A program made the translations under genes and the position numbers. From Gemmatimonadales bacterium (GTDB taxonomy: Bacteria > Gemmatimonadota > Gemmatimonadetes > Gemmatimonadales > GWC2-71-9): a DNA stretch of 64,000 nucleotides. Within the stretch, counting starts at the first letter, position 1, and each line of letters begins with the position of its first letter. Shown here in pieces: positions 38,775 through 55,268 of this stretch. Where the stretch lies: positions 832,001 to 896,000 of the forward strand of contig JBBCJC010000001.1 in assembly GCA_037189525.1 (NCBI GenBank), in the 5' to 3' direction. A model generated the notes under the pieces. It searched no databases. It was not told the origin of the DNA and worked only from the letters and a program-made list of their open reading frames with translations.

Positions 38775-38796
38775 ATCGTATGTCTCGGCCGGCCGC

Positions 38797-39318
38797 TCAA
38801 ACGCCGCCGGTCCGTACGCCGCGCGCGGCTGCCATGACCGGCCCATTCAGAATCTGGAGCACGTCGTCCACGATGGTCGGGATCGGCCGCTCCTCCCCGA
38901 TGATCATGGGCGACCCCGGCGCATCCGTCAGCGGCTCGGCGCAGCAGGCGGCAGCAGGGGTAATCACCACCAGCCGCTCGACCCGGTCCGGATCCAGCAT
39001 GGCGTATCCGATGGCCGGCGCCGACATCGGGCCATCGGCCAGGACGGACACCCGGTCGAGGCCGAGCCCGTCGAGGAACGGCCCCAACCAGCCTGCGAAA
39101 TCTTCGGCGCCGGGGGTCACGTCGGGGGCGATCAGGCGGTAACGCTCGGCCACCGCTTCGATCACGGCATTCCAGAGCGGCAGCGGGTTCGCGGCCTGGG
39201 TCAGCAGGATCACCGGCCGGCCCGAGCCCGACCGGACGTATTCGGTAGCGGTCTTTCCCACGCGGACCACGGCGCGGAAGTTCCCGGTTCGGCTCACACT
39301 GTTGTCGTCGGTCATCAT
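38797..39318 (-). CDS. Short, degenerate alpha/beta-hydrolase-fold protein
   Basis: GGAG RBS before ATG 39318; GSGRPVILL, YRLIAPD, FLDGLGLDRV, PDRVERLV; no GxSxG. Confidence 0.65.
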   Translation of the reverse strand: MMTDDNSVSRTGNFRAVVRVGKTATEYVRSGSGRPVILLTQAANPLPLWNAVIEAVAERYRLIAPDVTPGAEDFAGWLGPFLDGLGLDRVSVLADGPMSAPAIGYAMLDPDRVERLVVITPAAACCAEPLTDAPGSPMIIGEERPIPTIVDDVLQILNGPVMAAARGVRTGGV

Positions 39319-39343
39319 ATGGTTCCAGCTCCCGTTCACAATC

Positions 39344-39376: not shown

Positions 39377-39493
39377 GAATCAGCAAGTCGTTTCAAATCA
39401 ATGAGTTAGCTGTTCAGCACCCAGCTACTGGCGGGGTCGCCGCCCGACCACGGTGGCGTTGCGGCAACCATTCCAATACTCTTGAGGGATATT

Positions 39494-39708
39494 CGTGCTG
39501 GTCGCCGGCTCGGCGTGGTCTGAGCCGGCGTGAAAAGGGAACCCGGTGTGAATCCGGGGCGGCCCCGCCGCTGTGAGGAACGACGAACGGGACAAGTAGC
39601 CCACTGCGACAGCGTATCGTTGCGGGAAGGGTGTCCTCAGTAGGATGACTTCCGAGCCAGAAGACCTGCCAACGCGCTATTTCCTGTGTCGTCCCTCGGG
39701 GGAGGGAC
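39494..39708 (+). ncRNA. Cobalamin riboswitch (long form) upstream of metE
   Basis: AAAAGGGAA-CCCGGTGTGAATCCGGG-GCGGCCCCGCCGCTGT; GCCCACTG..GGGAAG; B12 box AGCCAGAAGACCTGCC; P13 hairpin 39691-39708 with loop complementary to L5 CCCC(G). Confidence 0.93.
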
Positions 39709-39763
39709 AGCGGGCTCCGCGCTCGACGCTCGTCTTCCGACGGTGTTGGGTCCGACCGGCATG

Positions 39764-39799
39764 GGCTTCCTGGATTCCGATCCGGAAGCCTTCGTGTTT
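39764..39799 (+). terminator. Putative terminator in the riboswitch expression platform
   Basis: GGCTTCC...GGAAGCC stem followed by TTCGTGTTT. Confidence 0.45.
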
Positions 39800-39862
39800 C
39801 CTGCCGGTGGCGCAGCTGCATTCTCCTCCGGGGTGACCATACCCAACCCGAGAGGACCTGTC

Positions 39863-42169
39863 ATGTCGTCGCACCCTGCTGTCTCCGCATCAAACCTGGG
39901 ATTTCCGCGCATCGGCGCCCGTCGCGAACTCAAACGGGCTTTGGAATCGTTCTGGGCCGGAAAAGCGGATGCGGCCAGCCTCCACGCCATTGCGAGCGAG
40001 TTGCGCGCCAAGCACTGGCGACTCCAGCACGATGCGGGCGTCACCCCCTCGTCGAACGATTTCTCGTTCTACGACCAGGTCCTCGACATGGTGATGATCA
40101 CGGGCGCGGTGCCCGACCGATACCGCGCGCTGGATGGTGACCCGCTCCGCCAGTACTTCGCCATGGCCCGCGGCGATCAGCGGGACGGCGTCGACCTGCC
40201 GGCGATGGAAATGACCAAGTGGTTCGACACCAACTACCACTACATCGTCCCGGAGTTCGATCAGAACACCTCGTTCCGTCTCGGCTCGGAAAAGCCGGTC
40301 GAGGAATACCTCGAGGCCAAGGCGCTGGGCATCGAGACCCGTCCCGTCCTGCTCGGACCGATCTCGTTTCTGACGCTCGGGAAAATGGCTGACGGCGGCT
40401 CGGCCCTTACGCTGCTCGACGGGTTGCTACCGATCTACGAAACGCTGCTGCGCAGGCTCGCAGCAGCGGGCGCTCGCTGGGTACAGATCGACGAACCCAT
40501 CCTGGTCCTCGACCTGTCCGAGGCTCATCGAGCCGCGTTCCGCACGGCGTACGATCGGCTCGCGAAAGTGGGTGACGCACCGCAGGCCGTGCTCACGACC
40601 TATTTCGGTGCGCTGGGCGACAATCTCGACCTGGCCACGTCGCTGCCCGTCGCCGGGCTGCATGTCGATCTGGTCCGCGCTCCGGAGCAACTGGACGCGG
40701 TCCTCGCCGCCCTGCCTGCCGACCGGGTCCTGTCGGCCGGTATCATCGACGGCCGTAACATCTGGCGCACCGACCTCGACACCGCGCTCGGCACACTGCG
40801 GACCATCGCGACCGCGCGCCCGAGATCGGGACTGATCGTGGCCCCGTCGTGTTCGCTGCTGCACAGCCCGGTCGGACTCGACACGGAAACAGCCCTCGAC
40901 GCCGAGTTGCGCAGCTGGCTTGCGTTTGCCACCGAAAAGCTCTCCGAAGTCGAGGCGTTGACACAAGCACTCGGTGCGGGTGGCGAAGCCGCCGCCTCGG
41001 CGTTCGCTTCCAGCTCCGCTGCTGTGATCAGCCGACGAGCCTCGACCCGGATCCATCGAGCCGAAGTCGACGCCCGGCTCGATGCAATCACGGCCGAGTC
41101 GACCCGTCGCCAGAGCCCGTATCCGACCCGACGGTCGGCGCAGCGCTCCATCGGACTCCCGACCTTTCCGACCACCACGATCGGCTCGTTTCCTCAGACC
41201 GCTGCGGTCCGCAACGCGCGGGCAGACCACAAGAAGGGCACGCTCGATACGGATGCCTATGACCGTTTTCTGCGAGACGAAATCGAACGAACCGTCCGGA
41301 TCCAGGAGACGATTGGCCTCGACGTGCTGGTGCACGGGGAGTTCGAGCGCAACGACATGGTGGAGTACTTCGGCGAGCGGCTCGATGGCTTTGCCTTTAC
41401 CGCCAACGGATGGGTGCAGAGTTACGGGTCACGGTGTGTCAAACCACCGATCATCTATGGCGACGTGGTCCGTCCGGCTCCGATGACGGTCAGCTGGTCG
41501 CGGTTTGCGCAAAGCCTCACCGACCGACCGATGAAGGGTATGTTGACCGGACCAGTCACCATCCTGCAGTGGTCATTCGTCCGAGACGACCAGCCGCGCG
41601 ACGTGACCTGCCGGCAGATTGCCCTGGCCATCCGGGACGAGGTGGTCGATCTCGAGGCGGCCGGCCTCCGGGTCATCCAGATCGATGAGCCTGCCATCCG
41701 AGAGGGACTCCCGCTCCGGAAAGCCGACTGGGCGCAGTACCTCGCCTGGGCCGTCGATGCCTTTCGCATCGCGTCGTCGGGGGTGCGGGACGAGACCCAG
41801 ATCCACACCCATATGTGCTACTCGGAGTTCAACGATATCGTCGACGCCGTTGCCTCGATGGATGCCGACGTCGTGTCGATCGAAACCTCACGATCGAAGA
41901 TGGAACTCCTGGACGCCTTTGCCAGGTTTGCCTATCCCAACGAAATTGGGCCTGGCGTCTACGACATCCATTCGCCTCGGGTGCCGCCGGAGGCCGAGAT
42001 GGTTACTCTGCTTCGACGGGCAGCGGAGGTCATTCCCGCCGACCGGCTGTGGGTCAACCCCGACTGCGGACTCAAGACGCGCGGGTGGCCGGAAGTTGAA
42101 CGAGCGCTGACTGCGATGGTGGCCGCGGCGCGAACCCTGCGAGCGGAGCAAGCGGCGGCCAGTAACTAG
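39863..42169 (+). CDS. metE: Cobalamin-independent methionine synthase
   Basis: [66 protein letters not shown] before ATG 39863. Confidence 0.97.
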
Positions 42170-42178
42170 GGCGCCGCG

Positions 42179-42442
42179 ATGTCATCCGGACGGGTCGGCG
42201 TCGAATATTCTCAGGAGGTTGCTACGAACACGTCGTCGATCGACCCGTCCCGGTGCCCGCTCTGCGCGGACGACAACGGCTGCGCCATGGCCGGCAGCGA
42301 CCCGACCGATCCATGCTGGTGCACCAGCGCCAGCATTCCGCCAAGCCTGCTGGCGCTGGTACCGCCCGAGTTGCAATCGAAGGCGTGTATCTGCAAGACG
42401 TGCGTCGAGGCGCATCTGCCCAGTGGGGATGCGCCTCGATGA
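42179..42442 (+). CDS. Cysteine-rich CWC-family protein
   Basis: CPLC...N.C...CWC...ACICKTC. Confidence 0.8.
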   Translation: MSSGRVGVEYSQEVATNTSSIDPSRCPLCADDNGCAMAGSDPTDPCWCTSASIPPSLLALVPPELQSKACICKTCVEAHLPSGDAPR

Positions 42443-42460: not shown

Positions 42461-43354
42461 TCAGCCCATCAGCTGGATGATACTCGAGAAGTCGAGGGTG
42501 CCGGAGCCCGCTCGGCTGTGGACGGCGTACAAGTTGCGCGCCAGCGCGCCAAGCGGCGTCGCGGCATGGGAGGCCCGAGCGGCCTCCTCGGCCAGATCGA
42601 GATCTTTCAGCATCAGATCGGTACCGAACCCGCCGCTATAGCCACGCGACGCCGGCACATTCTCCATCACGCCGGGCAACGGATTGTAGACCTCCAACGC
42701 CCAATTCCGTCCGGAACTCTTGGCCATGATCTCGGACAGCACCTTGGGATCGAGTCCGTTAGCCACGCCGAGTGCCAGTGCCTCCGAGGTACCGATCATC
42801 AGAATGGCCAGCAGCATGTTGTTGCACAGCTTGGCCGTTTGCCCGGAACCCGCGCTGCCGGCGTGGAATACATTCTTACCCATCGCCTGAAAGACGGGCC
42901 TGGCGCGTTCGAGGGCCGCTTCGTTGCCGCCCACGATGAAGGTGAGTGTTCCGGCCGCCGCTCCCCCCGTGCCGCCGGACACCGGCGCATCGAGGAACGC
43001 GGTCCCTTTTCGCTCGGCCGCGAGCCCGACCGTGCGCGCGCTGGCCGGCGCAATCGTGCTGCAATCGAGCAGCAGCACTCGGGCATCGAGCGTTGCGATC
43101 AACCCGGAAGACTCCCCGTCACCCAGATATAGGGATTCGACATGGCGACTGGCCGGCAACATCGAGATAACGACCTCCGCTCCCTCCACCGCAGCCGTCA
43201 GACTATCGGCCAAGGGAACACCGAGTTCCGTCGCGAGTCGGCGCGCATCATCGGAGAGGTCGAAGCCGGACACATGATATCCGGTCTTGACGAGGTTTGC
43301 GGCCATGGGTCGGCCCATGTTCCCCAGCCCGATGAAGGCAATGCGTTGTGACAT
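42461..43354 (-). CDS. mmsB: 3-hydroxyisobutyrate dehydrogenase
   Basis: FIGLGNMG, DAPVSGG, KLCNNMLL, LMLKDL. Confidence 0.93.
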   Translation of the reverse strand: MSQRIAFIGLGNMGRPMAANLVKTGYHVSGFDLSDDARRLATELGVPLADSLTAAVEGAEVVISMLPASRHVESLYLGDGESSGLIATLDARVLLLDCSTIAPASARTVGLAAERKGTAFLDAPVSGGTGGAAAGTLTFIVGGNEAALERARPVFQAMGKNVFHAGSAGSGQTAKLCNNMLLAILMIGTSEALALGVANGLDPKVLSEIMAKSSGRNWALEVYNPLPGVMENVPASRGYSGGFGTDLMLKDLDLAEEAARASHAATPLGALARNLYAVHSRAGSGTLDFSSIIQLMG

Positions 43355-43372
43355 GAGAAGCTCCTCGATCGC

Positions 43373-44485
43373 TTACGCCAGGTCCGCCAGCGGATGCGCC
43401 CCGGTATAGCGCATCACGAAGTGCTCATCGATCCACGCCGGAGTGACCTCCTCGAGCGTCGCCGGCGTCCACGACGGTTTCCGGTCGCGATCGATCAGCA
43501 GCGCGCGAATGCCCTCGGCGAAGTCGGGGTGGGCGGCACACCCAAGGGACACGTCATATTCGAGTCGGAACACATCGCCTAACGACAGGTACGTCACCCG
43601 ACGGCGCAGTTCATACGCCAATGCCGCGGAGGTCGGTGATCCCCGGCGAAAGGCGGTCACGGCGCCGGCCAACCATGGATCGGCGTCTGCGGCCTGCTGT
43701 AGACGGGAGACAATCTCAGCCAGCGTATCGTCGATACCAACGATCTCGTTGATCTGATCGAAATGGGTCCGAAGTGCGGACTCTGGTACGGTGGCGGCAC
43801 GGTACCGCGTCAGGATAGCCGACAGAGCGCTTCGATCCGTGGCGGCGTGGCCTGACCAGCGGGCAGCCTCAATGGCCGATAGAACCTCGGCCCGCGCCGC
43901 ATCGGGGACGACCACGTCCGCCAGCCCCGCAAAGAGCGCATCCGCGGCATTCAGGGGCACCCCGGTCAGCGCCAGGAACAGGCCGATCCCGCCCGGCATC
44001 CTCCGCAGGAACCAGCTGCCCCCGACATCGGGGTACAGCCCGACCGAAATCTCCGGCATCGCGAGCCGGGTCGCTTCGGTGGCTACCCGATGCGACGCGC
44101 CGGCCATGAGACCGATCCCGCCCCCCATTACGATGCCATGCCCCCAGCACAGGAAGGGCTTGGGATAGGTGTGAATCCGGTAGTCGAGGCGATACTCTCG
44201 GGCAAAGAAATCTTCCGCGTAGGCATTCCGACCACTGCCCGCCTGGCGCATCGAATGGTAGAGCTCATGGAGGTCACCTCCGGCGCAGAGAGCTTTCGCG
44301 CCTGCTCCCTGCAGGATCACTCCGACGACGGATGGGTTACGCGCCCACCGCTCGAGCGCGGGGTCGATCAGACGGATCATCGCGAGCGACAGCGCGTTGA
44401 GCGTCGCCTCGCTGTTCAGTGTGACCAAGCCGAAGCGATGGCCTGAGGCGGTCTCGAGCTCATCGACCAGAACGACGTCCGCCAT
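43373..44485 (-). CDS. 3-hydroxyisobutyryl-CoA hydrolase-like (crotonase superfamily)
   Basis: ALCAGGD, FFAREYRLDY, GIVMGGG, AMPE..GLYPDVG, DFAEGIRALLID; start ATG 44485. Confidence 0.9.
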   Translation of the reverse strand: MADVVLVDELETASGHRFGLVTLNSEATLNALSLAMIRLIDPALERWARNPSVVGVILQGAGAKALCAGGDLHELYHSMRQAGSGRNAYAEDFFAREYRLDYRIHTYPKPFLCWGHGIVMGGGIGLMAGASHRVATEATRLAMPEISVGLYPDVGGSWFLRRMPGGIGLFLALTGVPLNAADALFAGLADVVVPDAARAEVLSAIEAARWSGHAATDRSALSAILTRYRAATVPESALRTHFDQINEIVGIDDTLAEIVSRLQQAADADPWLAGAVTAFRRGSPTSAALAYELRRRVTYLSLGDVFRLEYDVSLGCAAHPDFAEGIRALLIDRDRKPSWTPATLEEVTPAWIDEHFVMRYTGAHPLADLA

Positions 44486-44486
44486 A

Positions 44487-45275
44487 TCAGCGATTCTTCC
44501 ATTCGGGCTTGCGCTTGGCGAGGAACGCGCCAACGCCCTCCTGCTGATCCTCGGTATCGAAGAGGTCGACGAACGCCTCGCGCTCACTTGGTAAGTTGTG
44601 CCGCGGCGGCAGTCCGCGCGCGCCTTGAATCAGCTGCTTACAGGCCGCAACGCTGCTCGGGCTCTGCCCCGCAACACCTTCCGCCAGCGCCAGCGCGCGC
44701 GAAACCGACTCGCCGCGGGGCACCACCTCCTCGACCAGCCCGATGTCGAGCGCCTTCGATGCCGGCACCTTCTCTCCGGCCAGGATCATCCGTTTGGCCC
44801 ACCCTTCCCCGACGAGCCAGGGCAGCCATTGCGTTCCGCCGGCACACGGCAGAAGCCCGACGCCAGCTTCGGGCAACGCCACCACGGCATGCTCTTCCGC
44901 GATCCGGATGTCGCAGGCAAGAGCGCACTCGAGGCCGCCACCCATCGCATAGCCGTTGATCGCGGCGATCGAGACGCCACGGAACCCTGCCAGCGCTTCG
45001 AACGCCTCACCAAAGCGACGCGCCATGGCGCGTGCGATCGCCTTATCACCCGAGGCAAACAGCTTGAGATCGGCGCCGGCCGAGAAGAATTTTTCGCCCT
45101 GGCCAGTCAGGATCAGTGAGTACACCGCGCGGTTCGCATTCAGGTCAGCGACCAGCGCCGTCAGGGCTCGAAGACTGTCTTCGGTCCAGGTATTGGCCGG
45201 TGGGTTGGCCAAGTGTACCAGGGCGGTATGTCCCCGCAATTCCAGCTGCAGGCCATGGTAGGTCGGGTTGCTCAT
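44487..45275 (-). CDS. Enoyl-CoA hydratase
   Basis: FSAGADL, GYAMGGGLECALACDIR, LPEAGVGL (both catalytic Glu present). Confidence 0.92.
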   Translation of the reverse strand: MSNPTYHGLQLELRGHTALVHLANPPANTWTEDSLRALTALVADLNANRAVYSLILTGQGEKFFSAGADLKLFASGDKAIARAMARRFGEAFEALAGFRGVSIAAINGYAMGGGLECALACDIRIAEEHAVVALPEAGVGLLPCAGGTQWLPWLVGEGWAKRMILAGEKVPASKALDIGLVEEVVPRGESVSRALALAEGVAGQSPSSVAACKQLIQGARGLPPRHNLPSEREAFVDLFDTEDQQEGVGAFLAKRKPEWKNR

Positions 45276-46432
45276 CGAATAGCCTCGATCGCTTCGGGTT
45301 CCAGCATTTTTCGGGAGACGATCACGCGCATGATTTCGTTGGTACCTTCGAGGATCTGATGGACGCGCGCGTCGCGCAGGTACCGCTCGAGCGGGTACTC
45401 CTTGGTGTAGCCGTACCCCCCGAACAGCTGGAGCGCCTCGTTACAGACTCGGAAACCGATGTCCGTGGCGTGCTGCTTGGCCATGGCGCAGTAGGTGGTG
45501 GCGTTACTCTCGCCCGCATCCAGCTTGCTCGCAGCGAGACGGACCATTTGCCGCGCAGACACCAGCTCGGTCGCCATATCGGCCAGCTTGAACTGCAGGG
45601 CTTGGAAATCAGCCAGGCGACGCCCGAACTGACGCCGCTCGAGCATGTAGCGCTGGGCGGCATTGAGCGCACCTTGCGCCGCACCGACCGAGCAGGTGGC
45701 AATGTTGATGCGGCCCCCGTCCAACCCCTTCATCGCAATCCTGAATCCTTCGCCTTCGGCGCCGAGCCGATACGCGGCCGGCACGCGAACGTTGTCAAAG
45801 GAGATCCCGCGAGTCGGCTGACTGTTCCAACCCATCTTTTCTTCCTTACGACCGAAGATGACACCGGCCGCGTCCGCCGGGACCAGGAAGGCCGTGATGC
45901 CCTTCGGCCCGTCAACGCCGGTCCTCGCCATCACGACCAGCGCATCGGTCACACCGCCTCCCGACACGAACGCCTTCGATCCGGACAGGACATAGTCGTC
46001 CCCATCCTGAACGGCGGTCGTCAATAGCGAGGCGGCGTCGGAGCCCGATCCCGGCTCGGTCAGGCAGTATGACGCCAGCTTCTCACCGCTGCTCAAGGCC
46101 GGGAACCATTCCGATGCGACCCGCTCGCCACCCCAGGTGCCGATCATCCAGGTCGACATGTTGTGGATCGTGATATACGCCGTGGTCGACGGGCAGGCCG
46201 CGGCCAGTTCCTCGAAGATGATCGCCGCGTCGAGCCGAGTCAGACCCATGCCGCCGAGCGCCTCGCTGATGTAGAGGCCGCAGATGCCCAGTTCGCCGGC
46301 GGCGCGGATCACCTCGCGCGGGAAGATCTCCTTCGCATCCCATTCCGCCGCATGAGGCGCGAGTTGCTCGGCCGCAAACTGACGCGCCATGTCCTGAAAG
46401 GCCCGCTGGTCCTCCGACAATTCGAAGTTCAT
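45272..46432 (-). CDS. Acyl-CoA dehydrogenase (isobutyryl-CoA dehydrogenase-like)
   Basis: YCLTEPGSGSDA, KMGWNSQPT, GLDGGRINIA, HQILEGTNEIMR. Confidence 0.92.
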   Translation of the reverse strand: MNFELSEDQRAFQDMARQFAAEQLAPHAAEWDAKEIFPREVIRAAGELGICGLYISEALGGMGLTRLDAAIIFEELAAACPSTTAYITIHNMSTWMIGTWGGERVASEWFPALSSGEKLASYCLTEPGSGSDAASLLTTAVQDGDDYVLSGSKAFVSGGGVTDALVVMARTGVDGPKGITAFLVPADAAGVIFGRKEEKMGWNSQPTRGISFDNVRVPAAYRLGAEGEGFRIAMKGLDGGRINIATCSVGAAQGALNAAQRYMLERRQFGRRLADFQALQFKLADMATELVSARQMVRLAASKLDAGESNATTYCAMAKQHATDIGFRVCNEALQLFGGYGYTKEYPLERYLRDARVHQILEGTNEIMRVIVSRKMLEPEAIEAIR

Positions 46433-46440
46433 CGGGATAC

Positions 46441-47967
46441 CTACCGGAGGCTAATCGTGCTGTTGATCGGCGCAGCAACTGACTCCGATTCGAACCAGCG
46501 CGCCGTCACAGTCTTGGTCTGGGTATAGAAAAGGACCACCTGACGCCCGTAGGGGCCGAGATCGCCCAGCTTGGATGCGCGGGAGCCTGTAAACGAGAAC
46601 AACGGCACCGGCACGGGAATCGGCACGTTGATGCCGACCTGGCCGACATCGATTTCTTCCTGGAAGGTGCGCGCCGCAGCGCCCGACGACGTAAAAAGCC
46701 CGGTCCCGTTGCCGTTCGGATTCCGGTTGACGAGTTCGATCGCATCCCGAAGCGTGTCGGCCGTCATGAGACACAGCACAGGGCCGAAGATCTCCTCATC
46801 GTAGATCGTCATACCCGGCTGGACACCGGAGAAGATGGTCGGACCAACGAAGTTGCCTTGTTCAAAGCCGGGAACCGTTACATCGCGACCATCGAGTTCG
46901 AGGACGGCTCCTTCGGTGGCCCCCTTTTCGATCAGAGTCCGAACCCGGTCACGCGCCGCGCAGGAAATGACCGGACCGACATCGGTGCCTGCTTCCGTAC
47001 CGGCATTGACCTTGAGCGTCTTGGCTTTGGCGACGATATCCGAAATCCAGGTTCGCGCCTCACCGACCAGCACGACCACCGAAGCGGCCATACAACGCTG
47101 CCCCGCTGCACCGAATCCGGCACCGACGATAGCGTTGAGCGTCTGCTCCTTGGGCGCATCCGGAAGCACCACGACGTGATTCTTGGCGCCCATCATGCAC
47201 TGGACCCGTTTGCCGCTCTGTGAGGCGCGATGATAGACGTGAGTCCCCACTTTGGTCGAGCCGACGAACGAGACGGCCTTGATATCGGGGTGATCACAGA
47301 TGGCGTTGACCACATCGGCAGCGCCATGGACCACGTTGAGGACGCCTTTCGGCACCCCGGCTTCGAGGGCCAGCTCCACCAGGCGCATCGTCACCATCGG
47401 ATCCTGCTCCGACGGCTTCAACACAAAGGTGTTGCCGGTCGCGATGGCCATCGGGAACATCCAGAGCGGAATCATGGCCGGAAAGTTGAAGGGCGTGATC
47501 CCGGCGCAGACGCCTAACGGCTGCAGGATGGTATAGGTATCGACCCCGCCCGCAACGTTGGTAGCCAGTTCGCCCATCTGCAGATAGCCGATGTTGGCGG
47601 CATGCTCCACTACCTCGAGCCCACGGAACACGTCCCCTTCGGCGTCGGACAGCGTCTTACCCTGTTCGGCCGTGAGCAGCGCAGCCAGTTCCTGCTGATG
47701 CGCCCGAATCAGCTGCTGATATTTGAGAAAGATTCGCGCCCGGGCGCCGATCGGGGTCCGCCGCCAGGTGACGAACGCGGCTTTGGCCGCTGCCACCGCG
47801 GCATCGACCTCCTGCGGGGTGGCCATCGGCACACGAGCCAGGACTTCCTGTGTGGCCGGGTTGACGACATCACGCCACTTCGTCGTCTTCGAATCGACGA
47901 AGGCTCCATCGATCAGCAACTTGACGGACACGACACTCTCGACGGCGGAGCGCGGTTGAACGGGCAT
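46441..47967 (-). CDS. mmsA: CoA-acylating (methyl)malonate-semialdehyde dehydrogenase
   Basis: [54 protein letters not shown] before ATG 47967 (alternative start 48003). Confidence 0.94.
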
Positions 47968-47999
47968 ATCGGTCTCCTTCGACCTGGAGGAGCGCGCCG

Positions 48000-48884
48000 T
48001 CATGACGACGCACCGAAAAGAGCATCGAGCTTTCGCTCGTAGCTGTGGTAATCGATCCGATCGTACAATTCCTCGCGGGTCTGCATCAGAGTGACGACCG
48101 ATCGTTGCGAGCCCTCGCGTCGAATCGCCTCGTATACCTGCTCCGCTGCCCGGTTGGCGGCGCGAAACGCCGAGAGCGGATACAGGACGATGCCGACCCC
48201 GGCGTCGGTGAGTTCCGATAATGTGAAGAGCGGGGTGCTGCCAAACTCCGTAATATTGGCCAGTACAGGCACCGGCAACGCCGCGGCGAATCGCCGATAC
48301 TCGTCGAGGGTGCGTACCGCTTCGGGAAAAATGAAATCTGCGCCCGCAGCTGCGTATGCTGCGGCGCGATCGACCGTGGCATCCAGCCCCTCGGTCGCCA
48401 ACGCGTCGGTACGAGCAGCCACGACGAACGCCGGATCGGTTCTGGCATCGACTGCGGCCTTGATCCGATCGACCATTTCATCTCGCGGTACGATCGACTT
48501 GTTGGGGCGGTGACCGCATCGCTTGGCACCGGCCTGATCCTCCAGATGCACGCCGGCGGCACCTGCCCGCGTCAGATCCCGAACCGTGCGAGCGACATTG
48601 AAGGCCGATGGACCGAACCCGGTGTCGCCATCGACGAGGAGCGGCAGATCGCAAACCCCGGTAATCCGCCGCACGTCGACCAGCACATCCTCCAACGAGG
48701 AGATGCCCAGATCGGGAAGGCCGAGCGAGCCGGCTGCGACCCCGCCACCGGACAGATAGACCGCGCGAAATCCCGCGCGCTTGACCAGCAGCGCATGATT
48801 GGCGTTGATCGCGCCGACCAGTTGAAGCGGGTGCTCACTCTTGAGCGCTTGTCGAAACCGTTGTCCGGCAGAAGTCGATGCCAT
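48000..48884 (-). CDS. prpB: Methylisocitrate lyase
   Basis: [27 protein letters not shown]. Confidence 0.95.
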
Positions 48885-48886
48885 GA

Positions 48887-50338
48887 TCAGATCACGTAGA
48901 GGTCGATGTAGTCGGGCACGGGCATCGCCTGCAGGCGATCCGAATCCAGCGAAACCGCAAGAATGGCCTGCTGCTGCTTGGCCGGGAATCGGCGCGCCAG
49001 GTTGGTGCGGAACTTGGCTTCCAGGAGCGGGATGCCGTCCGCTCGGCGACGACGATGCCCGATCGGGTATTCGACCACGACTTCGTCGAGGCGCGTCCCG
49101 TCGTTCAGCTCGACCGTGACGCCGTTCGCAATCGACCGCTTTTCCGGATCATGGTAGTCGGCCGTAAAGGCCGGGTCTTCGACGCAGTCGATCCGATCGC
49201 GCAGCGCATCGATACGAGGATCGGCTGCGACCTCATCCTCATAGTCCGCGGCCGTGAGCCGGCCGAAAAGCAGCGGCACTGCCACCATGTATTGGATGCA
49301 GTGATCGCGATCAGCCGGATTGTTGAGCGGCCCCTTCTTGTCGATGATCCGGATGCACGCTTCATGGGTACGGATCGTGACGCGAGTAATGTCGGCCGCG
49401 CTCTTGCCCTGATCCGTCAGCCGTCGGTGCAGCGTCATGGCGGCTTCGACGGCCGTCTGGCTGTGGAACTCCGCGGGAAAACTGATCTTGAAGAGGACGT
49501 TCTCCATCACATACGTCCCGAAGGAGCGCTGAAAGGCAAACGGCTTGCCTTTGAAAAGGACGTCATAGAATCCCCAGGTCGGCGCCGTCAGGACCGACGG
49601 GTATCCCATCTCACCCTTTTGCGTCATCAATGCCAGTCGAACGGCCCGGCTGGTCGCATCACCCGCAGCCCATGACTTTCGGCTGCCGGTGTTCGGCGCG
49701 TGACGGTAGGTCCGCATGCTCTGCCCGTCGACCCACGCTTGCGATACGGCATCGATGATCTCATCGCGTGACAAGCCGAGCAGATTACCGACCACGGCCA
49801 TACTGGCGACTTTGACGAGGACGACATGGTCGAGACCGACCCGGTTGAACGAGTTCTCCAGCGCGAGCACACCCTGGATCTCGTGCGCCTTGATCATGGC
49901 CAGGAGCACATCCCGCATCAGCAGAGGAGGCCGACCCGCTGCCACGGCCGTGCGCGAGAGCCAGTCGGCCACCGCGAGGATACCTCCGAGATTGTCCGAC
50001 GGATGACCCCACTCGGCCGCGAGCCAGGTATCGTTGAAATCGAGCCATCGGATCATCGTGCCGATATTGAACGCTGCCTGAACGGGATCCAGTTGAAACT
50101 GGGTACCCGGCACCCGCGCCCCGTTCGGTACGACCGTGCCCGGTACGATCGGACCGAGCAGCTTGGTACAGGCAGGATACGACAGCGCCTCCAGCCCGCA
50201 GCCGAGTGTGTCGATCAGGCAGTGGCGCGCCGTCTCGAGCGCCAGGTCGGACACGGCCGATCGGTCGACGGCATAGTCGGCGATGGCAACCAGGACATCG
50301 TCCGGCGCGGGTCGGATATTGGAAATGTGACTGCTCAT
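48887..50338 (-). CDS. prpD: 2-methylcitrate dehydratase
   Basis: [52 protein letters not shown]. Confidence 0.96.
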
Positions 50339-50377
50339 GTATGCTCGTCGGCGCGAGGCGCCGGATCGGGTAAACGC

Positions 50378-51571
50378 CTAACGCGCATCCAGCGGCACAT
50401 AGGGCCGTTCATCCGGCCCGATGTAGTTCGCGCTGGGGCGAATGATCTTGCCATCGAGCCGCTGTTCGATGACGTGCGCCGACCACCCGGTCGTCCGCGC
50501 AATGACGAACAGGGGTGTAAACATCGCCGTCGGAACGCCCATCAGGTGGTAGGACACGGCGGAGAACCAGTCCAGGTTAGGAAACATCCGCTTCGCATCC
50601 CACATCACCTGCTCGATCCGCGCGGCAATCTCGAACATCCTGGTCGAGCCGGCCTCTTCCGACAGCCGCCGCGCCACGTCCTTGATCACGACGTTGCGAG
50701 GGTCCGACACCGTGTACACCGGATGGCCGAACCCGATCACGACCTGCTTGGCTTCGAGCAGGCGGCGAATGTCGGCCTCGGCCTGATCCGGATCGTCATA
50801 CCGCTGCTGGATATCGAAGGCGACCTCGTTAGCGCCGCCATGCTTGGGACCTCTCAACGCACCAATCGCACCCGTAATCGACGAGTAGAGATCCGACCCC
50901 GTGCCGGCAATGACTCGCCCGGCAAAAGTCGACGCATTGAACTCGTGCTCGGCATAGAGCACCAGCGAGGTGTGCATGGCTTCGACCCAGGAGCGCCGAG
51001 GTGTACGACCATGCAACAGATGCAGGAAATGCCCGCCGATCGAGTCGTCGTCGGTCTCGACCTCGATCCGTCGGCCATGGGTGGCATAGTGATACCAGTA
51101 GAGCAGAATCGAACTGAGTGACGCCAGCAGCCGATCGGCAATGTCGCGCGCACCGGCCAGCGGATGATCGTCCTTTTCCGGCAGCACACAGCCGAGTGCC
51201 GACACGCCGGTGCGCATGACATCCATTGGGTGAGTGGCCGCCGGAAGGCGTTCGAGCACATTCCGCACGTCGATCGGCAGGCCCCGCAACGATGCCAGCT
51301 TGGTCTTGTATGCTGCCAGGTCGGTTCGATTGGGGAGACTACCGTGAATCAGCAGGTGGGCCACTTCCTCGAACTCGCACTGCGCCGCAAGATCGAGAAT
51401 ATCATAGCCGCGATAGTGGAGGTCGTTCCCCGATCGACCGACCGTACACAACGCGGTGTTGCCGGCAGTGACGCCCGACAGCGCAACCGATTTCTTTGGC
51501 TTGGGACCTGAGGTCGAACCTGCGGAACCCCCGACCTCAGTCGGGGCGACGTTCGTTTCGGGAGAGATCAC
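50378..51571 (-). CDS. prpC: 2-methylcitrate synthase
   Basis: [51 protein letters not shown] before GTG. Confidence 0.95.
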
Positions 51572-51658
51572 GCGTCCTCCGGCCGTAACGCATCCTACGG
51601 TCGGGAACGGTGGTCAGTATGCTCCGGGCGGCAACGAGGAGAATACCCGACGACCGCA

Positions 51659-51805
51659 TCCTCTGACGCGAAGGACGCTGTCACTGCGATATGGCTCGTG
51701 GGCGGGCATTCGGGCTTGGCAGGAGTGCCTTACCGTTGCGCGACAGCGCCGGACTTTCACCGGCTTCCCCCGTATTGAGCCGACCACGACAGTCGGCCCC
51801 ACGAA
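51659..51805 (-). ncRNA. Cobalamin riboswitch (compact form) upstream of prpC
   Basis: Minus strand: P1 TTCGTGGG/CCCACGAG; GGGGAA-GCCGGTGAAAGTCCGGC-GCTGTCGCGCAACGGT; short P6 hairpin; AGCCCGAATGCC B12-box-like; P13 TCCTT-CGCGTCA-GAGGA. Confidence 0.85.
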
Positions 51806-51823
51806 CGTGCAACTTCCAAATCG

Positions 51824-51852
51824 AACGTAAGAGACGAACCCCCGGGGATCAA
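51824..51852 (-). promoter_or_regulatory. sigma70-like promoter for the riboswitch-prp-mms operon
   Basis: TTGATC-N17-TACGTT, placing the TSS just 5' of riboswitch P1. Confidence 0.6.
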
Positions 51853-51964
51853 GGCTGTCGGTTCCGGCAGTTTCGCTCCCAGCGCAACCTTTCCGACCGA
51901 ACCGCTCCCGAGGTCCACCGCCCACATATCGAAACCATGCGACGATTGACCGGAGACTCGCCGC

Positions 51965-52438
51965 TCAGCGCGCGGCGGCCGCCGGCTCGCGATGACTTCC
52001 CGAGGGACGGCGATGCGCACCGGACGTCCGAACCACCTCGTCTCCTGCCAGACGTGGTCGCTCGCGAGCCGCGACCGGCAACCGGCGACTCGCTCCGACT
52101 ACCCGCCGCGCGATCTGGACACTGAGCAGGATCACGCCGAGCAGCAGATACCCGCCGACGAACACGGCCCAATGCAGCACATTCCCGTTACCAACCGGCT
52201 GCCCGTTGACCTGAATCGCCGAGGTGCGGGCGACATCCGGACCAAGCAGAGCGGCCAGGACCCACCCGGTGGTCCATAAGCTGGCCACGATGCCCACCGC
52301 AATCGCGGCCTGCACCGTCGCCGACCTGGCCGCCCGCCGATCGCCGCGATTGCGGATCAGATTCCGCAACGGCAGCAGCACGGCCGCCGCGAGATAGAAG
52401 AGCCCGCCGACGCCGGCCCCAGGAATTCCCACCGTCAT
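51965..52438 (-). CDS. Small membrane protein (~3 TM)
   Basis: Hydrophobic segments; starts 2 nt after the GT2 stop. Confidence 0.7.
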   Translation of the reverse strand: MTVGIPGAGVGGLFYLAAAVLLPLRNLIRNRGDRRAARSATVQAAIAVGIVASLWTTGWVLAALLGPDVARTSAIQVNGQPVGNGNVLHWAVFVGGYLLLGVILLSVQIARRVVGASRRLPVAARERPRLAGDEVVRTSGAHRRPSGSHREPAAAAR

Positions 52439-52440
52439 TA

Positions 52441-53502
52441 TCAGTGCCCTTTCTCGTACGCAAGGAGCGGCCGGCCACGCACGACTTCGCGCCAGACAGC
52501 GCTCACGAAGAAGACGGCGTTGACCGTTCGGAGGACGAAGAAGCCGGGCACGCTTGCCAGCGCCTTACCGACTTCGCCTCGTGGTACCGCTCCCACCATG
52601 ACCGGGACGAGCACCGCCGGAAGGTCGATCACATAGCCGAGCAGCAGGTAGGGATTTCCGAACGCAATGGCCAGCGCCGGCAGCAGGAACAGATAGGCCA
52701 GCGACGCGATGACGGCATCCCAGCACGAGACCGCAACCGCGCTCCGCAGGAACGGAACCTCGAGCAAGCCGCGCCAATGGAGCCGCACGTTCTGCACGAA
52801 CCCGTGCGACCACCGCCGCAGTTGTTTCCGCATGAACGCGAAATCGTGCGGTTCGATCGGCCGGCAGAGCGCTTCCGGAACGAAGCGCACCTTGTGGCCG
52901 CGTTGATATAACGTCCAGGTCAGATCCATGTCCTCGGCGACCGTGCGCGTCTGCCAGCCGCCGGCGGCTTTGAGGATCTCGGTTCGATACATGGAAAAGC
53001 AGCCCGAACTGATGAACGGTGTCCCGTATCCGTCCTGGACCCGCTTATAGAAGGTGAAGGCAAAGAGATACTCGAGGTACCGCCCCCGCTCCCAGATGGT
53101 TTCCACATGTCGAGGGATCACGGAGCCGCAGGCGGCCGCAACTTCGGCATCGTCGAACGCATCGATCAGCCGCTCGATCCCGTCGGGCGCCAGGGTCGTA
53201 TCCGCGTCGACCGCCATGACGAGCGGGGTGGTCACCTGGAACAACGCAAACTGCTGCGCACCGGCTTTCGAGCCGGTATTGCTGGGAGGACGGACCACCG
53301 TTGCGCCTGCCGCGCGCGCAATATCGCCGGTGCCGTCATTCGAGCCGTCGTCGATCACGATGATCTCGGCCGGCGGCACCGTCTGCCGCTGCAAACTCGT
53401 GATCGTATCCGCGACGGACGCGGCTTCATTATAGGCCGGAATCAAGACGGTGACCGGCAAGCGTGGCCTGTTGTCGGCCCCAGATAGTTGCTGCAAAGAC
53501 AT
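52441..53502 (-). CDS. Processive-type glycosyltransferase family 2
   Basis: IPAYNE, DDGS, KAGA, DAD, VAED, QLRRW; C-terminal TM helices. Confidence 0.9.
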   Translation of the reverse strand: MSLQQLSGADNRPRLPVTVLIPAYNEAASVADTITSLQRQTVPPAEIIVIDDGSNDGTGDIARAAGATVVRPPSNTGSKAGAQQFALFQVTTPLVMAVDADTTLAPDGIERLIDAFDDAEVAAACGSVIPRHVETIWERGRYLEYLFAFTFYKRVQDGYGTPFISSGCFSMYRTEILKAAGGWQTRTVAEDMDLTWTLYQRGHKVRFVPEALCRPIEPHDFAFMRKQLRRWSHGFVQNVRLHWRGLLEVPFLRSAVAVSCWDAVIASLAYLFLLPALAIAFGNPYLLLGYVIDLPAVLVPVMVGAVPRGEVGKALASVPGFFVLRTVNAVFFVSAVWREVVRGRPLLAYEKGH

Positions 53503-53663
53503 CGTGGCGCGAATCGACTCAGACGGAGGAGACTATTGCTGCAAGCATCTCCCCGTGGACGTTTTATCACCCGATCACGCACACGCAGCCGACGAAGCGA
53601 AGCGATTCCCTGCACGACCGACGCAACGGTCGGCCGGAATTGCGACAGAAGTTCGCGACAGTC

Positions 53664-55268
53664 TCAGGATCCGGACCGAGCGGGGCCACGCAGCACCCGG
53701 CCCGGGGTGGCGCCGGTGAGCGAACCGTCTCGCAGAACTGACACGCCATTGATATAGATATGCACCATCCCCACCGAGAACCGGTGCGGGTCCTGATAGG
53801 TAGCCAGATCCGCGATCCGTTCGGGATCGAAAACCACCAGGTCCGCATACATCCCTTCACGCACCTGGCCCCGCTCCCGCTGGCCGACCTGCTCCATCGA
53901 CAGCGAGGTCATCCGCCGAATCGCTTCCTCGAGCGACAACACCTGCTGCTCCCGGACATACCGGGCCAGGACCCGCGGAAAGGCGCCGTAGCTCCGCGGA
54001 TGAGGGAAGCCGCGACCGTAGCCGACCGAATCACCGTCGGTTTCGATCATGGCAAAGGGATGCTGCAGCACCCGCACGACGTCCGCTTCGTCCATCATGT
54101 GATAGATGGCGCTGAATCCTCCGGCCAGCTGCAGTTCGATGGCCAGTTGCACTCCATTCACCGCGTTGATGGCAAGACCGCGATCGCGGGCCAGATCCGC
54201 CATCGTCTTGCCGTTGTACGACGGATTGGACGGAAGCACCCGGAACTGAATCCGCTCGAGTTCGTCGCCCGCCCAGTCGAGCCGCATCCGTTCCAGCATC
54301 TCGGCCTCGAGCCTGGGCCGGATGCGCGGATCATCGACGCGCGCCCTGAGTGAATCGACTCCGCCGGCCAGCGCCCAACCGGGAAACAACACGCCCGAAT
54401 GGGTACTCCCGGCCGTGTAGGGATAGACGTCATGCTTGACGTCGAGACCGCGCGCCCGCGCCGAGTCGATCATGGCGATGGTGGTGCGGGTCCAACCGAA
54501 CTGACCGGCACCGGCCGCCTTGTGGTGATTGATCTGCACCGGAATCCGCGCTTCGTCCGCAACCCGGATCGTCTCGCGCACGGAGGCCAGCAGGCCGCGG
54601 GCTTCGTCGCGCATGTGCGTCACGTAAATGCCGCCATGCCGCGCCGCGACCTTGGCCAGTTCGATCACCTCCTCGATCCGGGCATAGTTGGCGGGCACAT
54701 AGAGCAAACCCGTGCTCAAGCCGAGCGCGCCGTCCCGCATGTTGGCCTCGACCATGGCTTTCATCTGCTCGAGTTCGGCCGCGGTCGGCGCACGGTTGGC
54801 CAATCCCATCACGGTACGGCGAATCGAGGTATGCCCCGCGAAGTATCCGACGTTCGGGGCCGTCCGCAGACGATCGAGATACGCACCGAGCGGCCAGGGC
54901 GTATCGCCGCTGTGGACCGGAGTCAGGAGCGTGGTGACGCCCTGGAATAGAAAGTTTTCTGCCAGCGGGCGATTGTGGATATCGGTCGCCACGTGCGCAT
55001 GATGGTCAACGAATCCCGGCGCCACGACCAGCCCGGTGACATCGAACTCGACCCGCCCGCTTCCCGCAGCGATGCCGTCTCGCGCCACCCGGACGATCCG
55101 ATCTCCCTGAAGCGCCACATCCGCCCGGAATCGTGGCGCTCCGGACCCGTCGACCACCGTTCCGCCACGCAGCACGACATCGTACTGCTGTGCGTAGGCC
55201 CGACCTGGGCCGGCAACGACCGCCAGCCAGACACCCAGCAACGAAACGATCGAGGAGACACGGGCCAT
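53664..55268 (-). CDS. N-acyl-D-amino-acid deacylase family protein, secreted
   Basis: VVDGSG, APGFVDHHAH, GLSTGLLY, THMRDE, DVYPY, HPRSYGAFPR; start placed at MARVSS (uncertain). Confidence 0.88.
   Translation of the reverse strand: MARVSSIVSLLGVWLAVVAGPGRAYAQQYDVVLRGGTVVDGSGAPRFRADVALQGDRIVRVARDGIAAGSGRVEFDVTGLVVAPGFVDHHAHVATDIHNRPLAENFLFQGVTTLLTPVHSGDTPWPLGAYLDRLRTAPNVGYFAGHTSIRRTVMGLANRAPTAAELEQMKAMVEANMRDGALGLSTGLLYVPANYARIEEVIELAKVAARHGGIYVTHMRDEARGLLASVRETIRVADEARIPVQINHHKAAGAGQFGWTRTTIAMIDSARARGLDVKHDVYPYTAGSTHSGVLFPGWALAGGVDSLRARVDDPRIRPRLEAEMLERMRLDWAGDELERIQFRVLPSNPSYNGKTMADLARDRGLAINAVNGVQLAIELQLAGGFSAIYHMMDEADVVRVLQHPFAMIETDGDSVGYGRGFPHPRSYGAFPRVLARYVREQQVLSLEEAIRRMTSLSMEQVGQRERGQVREGMYADLVVFDPERIADLATYQDPHRFSVGMVHIYINGVSVLRDGSLTGATPGRVLRGPARSGS

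Follow-up and report, generated by a model that had tools for sequence, protein, structure and literature searches.

Sun et al. 2013 (PMC3766115) describe 13 isozyme targets of cobalamin (B12) riboswitches (nrdAB, nrdDG, nrdEF, metE, metF, ardX-frdX, achX), and neither prp nor mms occurs in the regulon table of its 255 genomes, in which long cells (>400 characters) may be cut. In Mycobacterium tuberculosis, B12 represses prpR-prpDC, beside metE, via the acyl-CoA-binding protein PrpR (PMC10924821, PMC12713380, PMC4428469, PMC6765138). The propionate shunt of Caenorhabditis elegans (acdh-1, ech-6, hach-1, hphd-1, alh-8) is expressed at low B12 through propionate sensing (PMC4951191, PMC6368391). 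Hence in mycobacteria and in C. elegans, as these sources present it, the choice of a B12-free propionate route is made by proteins sensing the build-up of substrate. Here we describe a locus of a Gemmatimonadales bacterium at which an eight-gene operon for the methylcitrate cycle and isobutyryl-CoA oxidation, running from prpC to mmsB, is headed by a compact cobalamin riboswitch. It lies in a stretch of 64,000 nt (GenBank assembly GCA_037189525.1, contig JBBCJC010000001.1, positions 832,001 to 896,000), referred to as the window, to which all coordinates given without a contig refer.

A cobalamin riboswitch in the prpC leader

A compact class-II cobalamin riboswitch aptamer lies on the minus strand at 51684-51817. 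The Rfam family RF00174 matches 51817-51684 with 48.6 bits (gathering cut-off 31.5, E 4.2e-9), covering the entire model, and RF01689 (AdoCbl-II) matches 51789-51696 with 41.3 bits, above a cut-off of 36.5 that was reached in none of 14 control genomes. Rfam matches over cut-off number two in the window, each of them a cobalamin riboswitch. The P6 extension of the prpC-leader aptamer is short, having 7 nt where the model has 64 positions, and 113 nt separate the 3' end of the aptamer from the GTG of prpC (51571). As far as pairing potential goes, all four core pairs of the L5-L13 kissing loop and all seven pairs of P13 can form; the role of this kissing loop in cobalamin riboswitches is described in PMC9600662. 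The aptamer alone folds no better than shuffled sequences, with no advantage in free energy (z -0.33), and the riboswitch call therefore rests on the covariance models. A chance Rfam match was rejected, since two families exceed their cut-offs and the helices are kept in homologous leaders. By score, the prpC-leader RNA is a genuine class-II cobalamin riboswitch.

Upstream is a sigma70-like promoter (51824-51852, minus strand), with a -35 element TTGATC at 51852-51847, a 17-nt spacer and a -10 element TACGTT at 51829-51824, from which transcription would be expected to start near 51817. An initial annotation, made from the letters alone, had proposed this promoter: the letters are present, and a -35/-10-like pair is found at about the equivalent position before all five homologous switches, but the hexamers score only 7/12, below the threshold of the consensus scan, in which this weak site is consequently unlisted. 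Directly upstream of the -35 element are two 19-nt direct repeats, 74% alike and 29 nt apart (51862-51909, minus strand), which may be an operator or due to chance. Three further exact copies of the motif shared by the repeats occur in the genome, all inside open frames, and the motif was rejected as the mark of a genome-wide regulon. No PrpR-type palindrome is found near the promoter, and matches to it are at chance level (36 vs 41). The promoter spacer also contains an 8-nt perfect palindrome (51840-51847, minus strand) that is absent from the homologous leaders.

Composition of the operon

The leader is followed on the same strand by eight tightly spaced genes, for which scores are given against NCBIfam cut-offs: prpC, encoding a 2-methylcitrate synthase of 397 aa (50378-51571; NF009006, 703.9 vs 550); prpD, a 2-methylcitrate dehydratase of 483 aa (48887-50338; NF006943, 887.8 vs 575); prpB, a methylisocitrate lyase of 294 aa (48000-48884; NF008455, 505.5 vs 353); mmsA, a CoA-acylating (methyl)malonate-semialdehyde dehydrogenase (MMSDH; 46441-48003; TIGR01722, 739.4 vs 448.5), the likely start of which, at 47967, is preceded by a Shine-Dalgarno sequence; an acyl-CoA dehydrogenase (ACAD) of 386 aa and of the isobutyryl-CoA dehydrogenase (ACAD8) type (45272-46432); an enoyl-CoA hydratase (ECH; PRK09076) of 262 aa (44487-45275; NF006566, 436.2 vs 286); a 3-hydroxyisobutyryl-CoA hydrolase (HIBCH; 43373-44485; NF004127, 343.3 vs 274); and mmsB, a 3-hydroxyisobutyrate dehydrogenase (HIBADH) of 297 aa (42461-43354; TIGR01692, 410.6 vs 291.6). 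Cut-offs are passed by seven of the eight, whilst ACAD passes none; its closest structure in the PDB is human ACAD8 (1RX0; 468 bits vs 324 for the next), which is isobutyryl-CoA dehydrogenase. Catalytic motifs are present in all six enzymes checked, PrpC, PrpD and PrpB among them. The intergenic gaps are, in operon order, 39, 2, -4 (32 if mmsA starts at 47967), 8, -4, 1 and 18 nt, and overlapping or near-touching pairs of stop and start codons run through the operon.

These results bear out several points of the initial annotation, namely the compact riboswitch at the head of the operon, the identity, order and tight spacing of the eight genes, and the lack of prpR or any other protein regulator inside the unit; its term 'fused' applies to the joining of two modules in a single gene run and not to the proteins. 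One is a methylcitrate-cycle module of the PrpD type, with orthologues of PrpC, PrpD and PrpB all present, and the other a complete valine/isobutyryl-CoA oxidation (ivd/mms) set, comprising the ACAD8-type dehydrogenase, ECH, HIBCH, HIBADH and MMSDH. PMC7238569 describes an ivd valine/isoleucine cluster, the gene set of which matches this mms half. Like a regulator gene, prpE is absent from within the operon, a composition that would suit acyl-CoAs made inside the cell. Elsewhere in the source genome an aconitase-family gene (C3:245568-248219), which matches AcnD of another genome (G250) at 41%, is a candidate for the hydration of methylaconitate. Just past the stop codon of mmsB, at the junction with a convergent metE unit, is a perfect 12-bp hairpin (42405-42439), a possible 3' end signal that was not terminator-like in the scan.

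Predicted folding of the leader

An anti-aptamer strand, able to form 11 bp with L5, overlaps the 5' arm of P13 within 51656-51684 (minus strand); the P13 hairpin itself spans 51678-51656, with a loop that can pair with L5 in the kissing loop. The predicted expression platform (51569-51655, minus strand) consists of a spacer hairpin, then a hairpin at approximately 51612-51569 that, in constrained folding, would hide the Shine-Dalgarno sequence (51581-51572) and the GTG of prpC. The cost of opening the ribosome-binding site falls from 13.4 kcal/mol with the bound model to 10.7 kcal/mol with the free one, a difference of 2.7; of 300 spacer shuffles, 24 reach the bound cost, 11 the difference and 3 both. 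Folding further predicts that pairing is possible between the 3' arm of P13 and the strand otherwise hiding the ribosome-binding site, a layout common to the homologous leaders. As no intrinsic terminator was found in the leader by a terminator scan, control is predicted to be exerted, probably, at the translational level.

Cobalamin metabolism of the host genome

The source genome (G000, 98% complete) has four RF00174 matches, lying ahead of nrdAB-like genes, metE, a btuB-like gene (so called from its translation) and the prp-mms operon. The initial annotation had proposed looking for a B12-dependent mutase elsewhere in the genome; large subunits of two are in fact encoded, and it had missed that there is one for each module. 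That at C3:654074-655789 has Phe and Gln at two specificity sites, a pair that presumably marks isobutyryl-CoA mutase, and equals in this the fused mutases of 1157 aa in G191 and 1182 aa in G250; it is flanked by MeaB and the only mutase-type B12-binding small subunit. The other, at C5:200479-202029, has Tyr and Arg, the pair marking methylmalonyl-CoA mutase in PMC7238569. Since both types are encoded, there is a B12-dependent counterpart to either half of the operon; judged from sequence, the halves bypass one B12 mutase each, the C5 methylmalonyl-type and the C3 isobutyryl-type. The two split large subunits (C3:653004-657932; C5:200479-202029) apparently share one small subunit, and the same pair is found in the nearest genome, G021.

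Also encoded in G000 are an epimerase, NrdJ and a 1243-aa B12-binding open reading frame (ORF), whilst cobQ gave no match over cut-off. Given these, and the switches on metE, nrdAB-like and btuB-like genes, the host is a B12 user that probably cannot synthesise the vitamin.

The operon converges on a second B12-bypass unit. A long cobalamin riboswitch of the same island (39482-39687, plus strand; RF00174, 117.8 bits) heads metE, encoding the B12-independent methionine synthase (39863-42169, plus strand; NF003556, 1151.6 vs 541), and a 73-aa Cys_rich_CWC ORF, such that the two units face each other (the metE unit occupying 39482-42442). Another contig carries what is a second B12-bypass island (G000:C2:1409085-1415449), where riboswitch-nrdA-nrdB converges on a tandem thioesterase gene and a second metE, the latter 75% alike to that of the window and cut by the contig end. 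Diverging from the metE of the window are a 987-aa ATPase-TPR-activator-like regulator and a small alpha/beta-hydrolase-like ORF (35883-39339, minus strand), which are kept in G021. Upstream of the operon, on its own strand, lie a glycosyltransferase of the GT2 family and a hydrophobic 157-aa ORF without Pfam or NCBIfam matches (51965-53502, minus strand), absent from this position in G021.

Homologous leaders and occurrence of the arrangement

A search of 185,579 species genomes with an exact pattern for this leader subfamily gave five records, each carrying the label Gemmatimonadaceae or Gemmatimonas. Four of these head class-I nrdAB (L390 and L393, checked with hidden Markov models (HMMs); L391 and L394, by translation), whilst the fifth heads an uncharacterised ORF of 83 aa together with a fatty-acid desaturase (L392:1-1590), an unexplained B12 target. 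An 83% match before nrdA in G230 was left out of this count, because it could represent DNA already counted among the five. A further class-II switch precedes an nrdA-like gene in G055 (two of 141 relatives matched). P1, P2, P4, P13, the core of the kissing loop and the anti-L5 strand before P13 are kept in the five homologues, and the prpC-leader copy has private two-sided changes in P2 and P13. On the 3' side of P13 its sequence is unrelated to the nrdA leaders, yet folding predicts the same layout. With the closest switch homologues mostly heading nrdAB, the comparison suggests that a native nrdA-type leader was co-opted for the prp-mms operon.

Related loci were scanned with a pair of profile HMMs, by which four known compact switches are recovered. 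The prpC and ACAD locus searches each returned the best 80 of at least about 600 matches, and many of the loci are short and may miss the leader; within these bounds, a switch heading prp or mms genes was found at none of 164 prpC loci and none of 80 ACAD loci (244 related loci). The two switch matches among the 244 loci are the nrdA switch of G250 and, in L196, a switch on the other strand. Rfam found no switch at eight chosen loci. Conversely, the enzymes of the window were found at none of 80 out of at least 120 other compact-switch loci, and Pfam assigned the 101 ORFs from 75 such loci mostly to B12/cobalt transport, B12 biosynthesis and nrd genes. Viral contigs gave no match, and plasmids only core-motif matches or ordinary prpC genes, the leaders of which were not examined. 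G191, G596 and G027 have prp genes and no switch on those contigs, which are short (G596 is 78% complete). No riboswitch on prp or mms genes was found in the open literature, subscription papers and bioRxiv supplements being outside the search. Hence a cobalamin riboswitch on prp/mms genes is a target that was not found described, seen so far in one species-level lineage.

Origin of the enzymes and variation between strains

The enzymes of the operon are rare around the host, with G000 itself included in all the counts that follow. Among 60 relatives, PrpC was nowhere above 40% identity; the PrpC family is present in 3 of 401 phylum genomes and the ACAD orthologue in 2 of 401, whilst PrpB is found in 3 of 351 family genomes, and one of 22 genus genomes has HIBADH above its cut-off. 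The tally of the 60 relatives, and the one that gave the G230 match, include the unpublished G035 and G140; neither of these alone carries any of the claims. The best relatives are mostly from Beta- and Gammaproteobacteria, at 72-80% identity for PrpC and 65-76% for ACAD. In FastTree trees, ACAD pairs with a Comamonadaceae record (support 0.926), with G250 falling in the same wider clade (0.979). The three PrpCs from this phylum do not form a group; the trees were read without a monophyly test, and the donors are not established. The resemblance of the operon enzymes to betaproteobacterial ones suggests that they were borrowed. Of 80 related ACAD loci, 20 have a divergent ScfR gene ahead of the mms cassette, as does G250, and the order prpC-prpD-prpB with a close PrpB occurs at none of 160 loci.

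Several other loci touch on this arrangement. In G250 (L125:2829-19999), riboswitch-nrdAB lies beside ScfR-mmsA-ACAD-ECH-HIBCH-mmsB-prpC-acnD-prpF-prpB, the two modules being under protein control and clustered with another B12-free alternative. G021, approximately 80% alike over the left flank, lacks the operon block; at the syntenic spot (L157:11193-11828) a compact switch of 30.4 bits, under the cut-off, heads a 161-aa 4HBT thioesterase, probably of the achX type. An Acidobacteriaceae record (L100:3757-12629) also has mms and prp genes in one run, at which a riboswitch was not found, and in three unrelated proteobacterial-type loci (L038, L173, L395) metE is within ~10 kb of prpC or of the mms cassette, an echo of the clustering of B12-free routes.

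Four DNA runs were compared with the window; no RNA run was listed, which carries no information about expression. In the possible source run, 47446-54000 is covered without a difference by a single contig, the junction of switch and prpC included, and a second study (P2) has two runs that carry this junction in a strain ~97% identical; an assembly artefact was rejected on these grounds. A third study contributed short pieces over the switch and the mms genes, none of them bridging. The P2 runs also contain two deletion joints, both lacking microhomology. One joins 51361, after the leader and the first 70 codons of prpC, to 48380 in prpB, so that most of the prp genes are gone and the switch and mms genes are kept; judged with the letters of the window, not those of that strain, the joint puts the start of prpC in frame with mmsA, as would happen by chance in one case out of three. 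The other (42508|51942; depth 21 in run X2) suggests that another strain lacks the whole operon.

Regulatory model and alternatives

We propose, with a probability of roughly 60%, that B12 represses the translation of prpC and, by polarity, the operon. When corrinoid is present it would bind the leader, the L5-L13 kissing loop would fix P13, and the downstream hairpin would hide the ribosome-binding site of prpC; with prpC untranslated, expression of the tightly packed downstream genes would fall as well, through translational coupling or Rho-dependent polarity. Isobutyryl-CoA would then be taken by the B12-dependent isobutyryl-CoA mutase and propionyl-CoA by a putative methylmalonyl-CoA pathway. 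When corrinoid is lacking, the anti-aptamer strand would take L5 and the 5' arm of P13, freeing the 3' arm to strip the sequestering strand off the ribosome-binding site. ACAD, ECH, HIBCH, MmsB and MmsA would oxidise isobutyryl-CoA to propionyl-CoA, which PrpC, PrpD, an aconitase and PrpB would turn into pyruvate and succinate. Historically, imported modules of proteobacterial type may have lost their protein regulator and come under a native promoter-riboswitch leader of the nrdA type.

A number of observations weigh against this model. Folding lends it modest support, by a scoring devised once the sequence had been inspected; the ribosome-binding site of prpC is also paired in the unconstrained minimum-energy fold, and the same fold test applied to the five homologues gives the OFF direction clearly in L393 and weakly in two, a value of about zero in one and the reverse direction in L394. 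Six related leader sequences are too few for a significant covariation test. The lack of a leader terminator, together with Shine-Dalgarno-like sites of their own at mmsA and mmsB, means that the downstream genes may not follow prpC. To these are added the absence of the arrangement from the related loci surveyed and the deletions in sister strains, in view of which selection on the operon may be weak.

The same features bear on how far control might extend. If the switch gated translation of prpC, or of prpC-prpD-prpB, and the mms genes were read constitutively from the same or another transcript, the missing terminator, the separate ribosome-binding sites and the 39-nt gap after prpC would all be expected; however, no internal promoter was listed upstream of mmsA by a scan that is insensitive and gave one site inside mmsA, stop and start codons overlap or nearly touch through the operon, and in the strain without prp the switch still heads the mms genes, with a joint that may be in frame, making such partial control rather improbable. 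It is also unlikely, if slightly less so, that the riboswitch acts together with a substrate-sensing protein encoded at a distance and bound to the upstream repeats, a gate requiring both low B12 and a build-up of acyl-CoA. The repeats are the sole tandem pair of their motif in the genome, although this is circular in that the motif was derived from the pair itself, and the -10 element is weak; searches with PF09856 and PF06506 for regulators of the ScfR and PrpR_N types gave no match in G000, with the GntR, LysR and AraC families outside the search. Other copies of the motif in open frames, the missing PrpR-type palindrome and a promoter that looks inherited with the switch stand against such dual control. 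The claim of the initial annotation that the operon is switched on by B12 scarcity rather than by substrate is thus partly supported: the Rfam match, the two mutases and the lack of ScfR and PrpR_N in a 98% complete genome came out as it predicted, so that control by B12 is probable, whilst exclusivity is unsupported in view of the repeats and the regulator families outside the search.

The operon might have landed behind an nrdA or thioesterase leader and retain no useful regulation, which would fit the nrdAB homologues, the compact switch before a thioesterase at the same spot in G021, the single lineage and the deletions. We consider this improbable, given that the aptamer, kissing loop and anti-L5 strand are intact, that the hairpin hiding the ribosome-binding site fits the start of prpC and is unrelated to the nrdA leaders 3' of P13, and that the cargo is what low B12 would call for. 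A reversed switch, in which the 5' arm of P13 hides the Shine-Dalgarno sequence until B12 frees it, is hardly credible: the 10-bp helix on which it would depend (51678-51669 with 51581-51572, -16.9 kcal/mol) does beat P13 (-10.7 kcal/mol), but in the ligand-free state the anti-L5 helix, which is stronger (-18.4 kcal/mol), occupies this arm, the local hairpin hides the site when P13 has formed, and B12 induction of B12-free routes makes no metabolic sense. Less improbable is another role for the five mms enzymes, whose main or additional function may be a shunt that oxidises propionyl-CoA via acrylyl-CoA, 3-hydroxypropionate and malonate semialdehyde to acetyl-CoA, giving two parallel B12-free routes; this is compatible with a working switch, and we hold it as a minority possibility. 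The C. elegans homologues do so, repressed by B12 (PMC4951191). A shunt would also explain the strain losing prp yet keeping switch and mms genes, since the valine route alone would leave propionyl-CoA without a B12-free outlet. Nevertheless, ACAD is closest to isobutyryl-CoA dehydrogenase, the gene set matches the ivd cluster of PMC7238569, the fourth enzyme of the worm is a transhydrogenase and not MmsB, and the isobutyryl-type mutase gives the valine reading a logic of its own.

A broader and distinctly speculative picture combines repression by B12 with the shunt. In it, one riboswitch shuts an eight-gene bypass of both mutases without a protein regulator; the mms half would also be a propionate shunt, a bacterial, RNA-run counterpart of that in C. 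elegans; and the leader would be a mobile cassette, swapped within the phylum among nrdAB, thioesterase, desaturase-unit and catabolic operons and caught in mid-turnover among strains. Should repression by B12 itself hold, the choice of the B12-free route would be made by sensing the vitamin directly, and the targets of cobalamin riboswitches would extend from single isozymes to whole carbon routes, covering both acyl-CoA mutases at once. It would likewise be a case in which a pathway gained horizontally exchanged control by protein for control by RNA, and G250 represents its protein-controlled counterpart within the order. The locus makes a small test case, in that a 250-nt leader could be placed in a reporter, and its weight is limited by the single species-level lineage.

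Comparison with known systems

Of the described systems, the isozyme control exerted by cobalamin riboswitches (PMC3766115) is similar in that the same RNA family is used and B12 represses a B12-free alternative, as G000 itself does for metE and nrdAB; the targets there are one-for-one isozymes, whereas a multi-enzyme carbon route is concerned here. The compact class-II nrdAB leaders (L390, L391, L393, L394) are alike in 77% mean column identity across the leader alignment, promoter placement, P1, P2, P13, the anti-L5 strand and the predicted platform. The proteobacterial ScfR-mmsA-ACAD-ECH-HIBCH-mmsB (ivd-like) cassette and the prpB-prpC-prpD operons supply the same enzymes, in the same mms order and with 64-80% identity in the best relatives, but here the ScfR gene is absent, the prp order is C-D-B, and the prp genes come first and behind a riboswitch. 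G250, by contrast, joins the same modules with mms first, in the AcnD/PrpF type and under ScfR.

The prpR-prpDC-Rv1132-metE region of M. tuberculosis (PMC10924821, PMC6765138, PMC12713380) resembles this locus in having methylcitrate genes by metE, repressed by B12, in a host that also has a methylmalonyl pathway; there, however, PrpR drives prpDC and the riboswitch is on metE, whilst here the riboswitch is on prpC and no PrpR_N was found. The C. elegans shunt (PMC4951191, PMC6368391) shares homologues of ACAD, ECH, HIBCH and MMSDH, but the worm senses propionate via NHR-10/NHR-68 and has a transhydrogenase as its fourth enzyme in place of MmsB, and a shunt role for the bacterial enzymes is putative.

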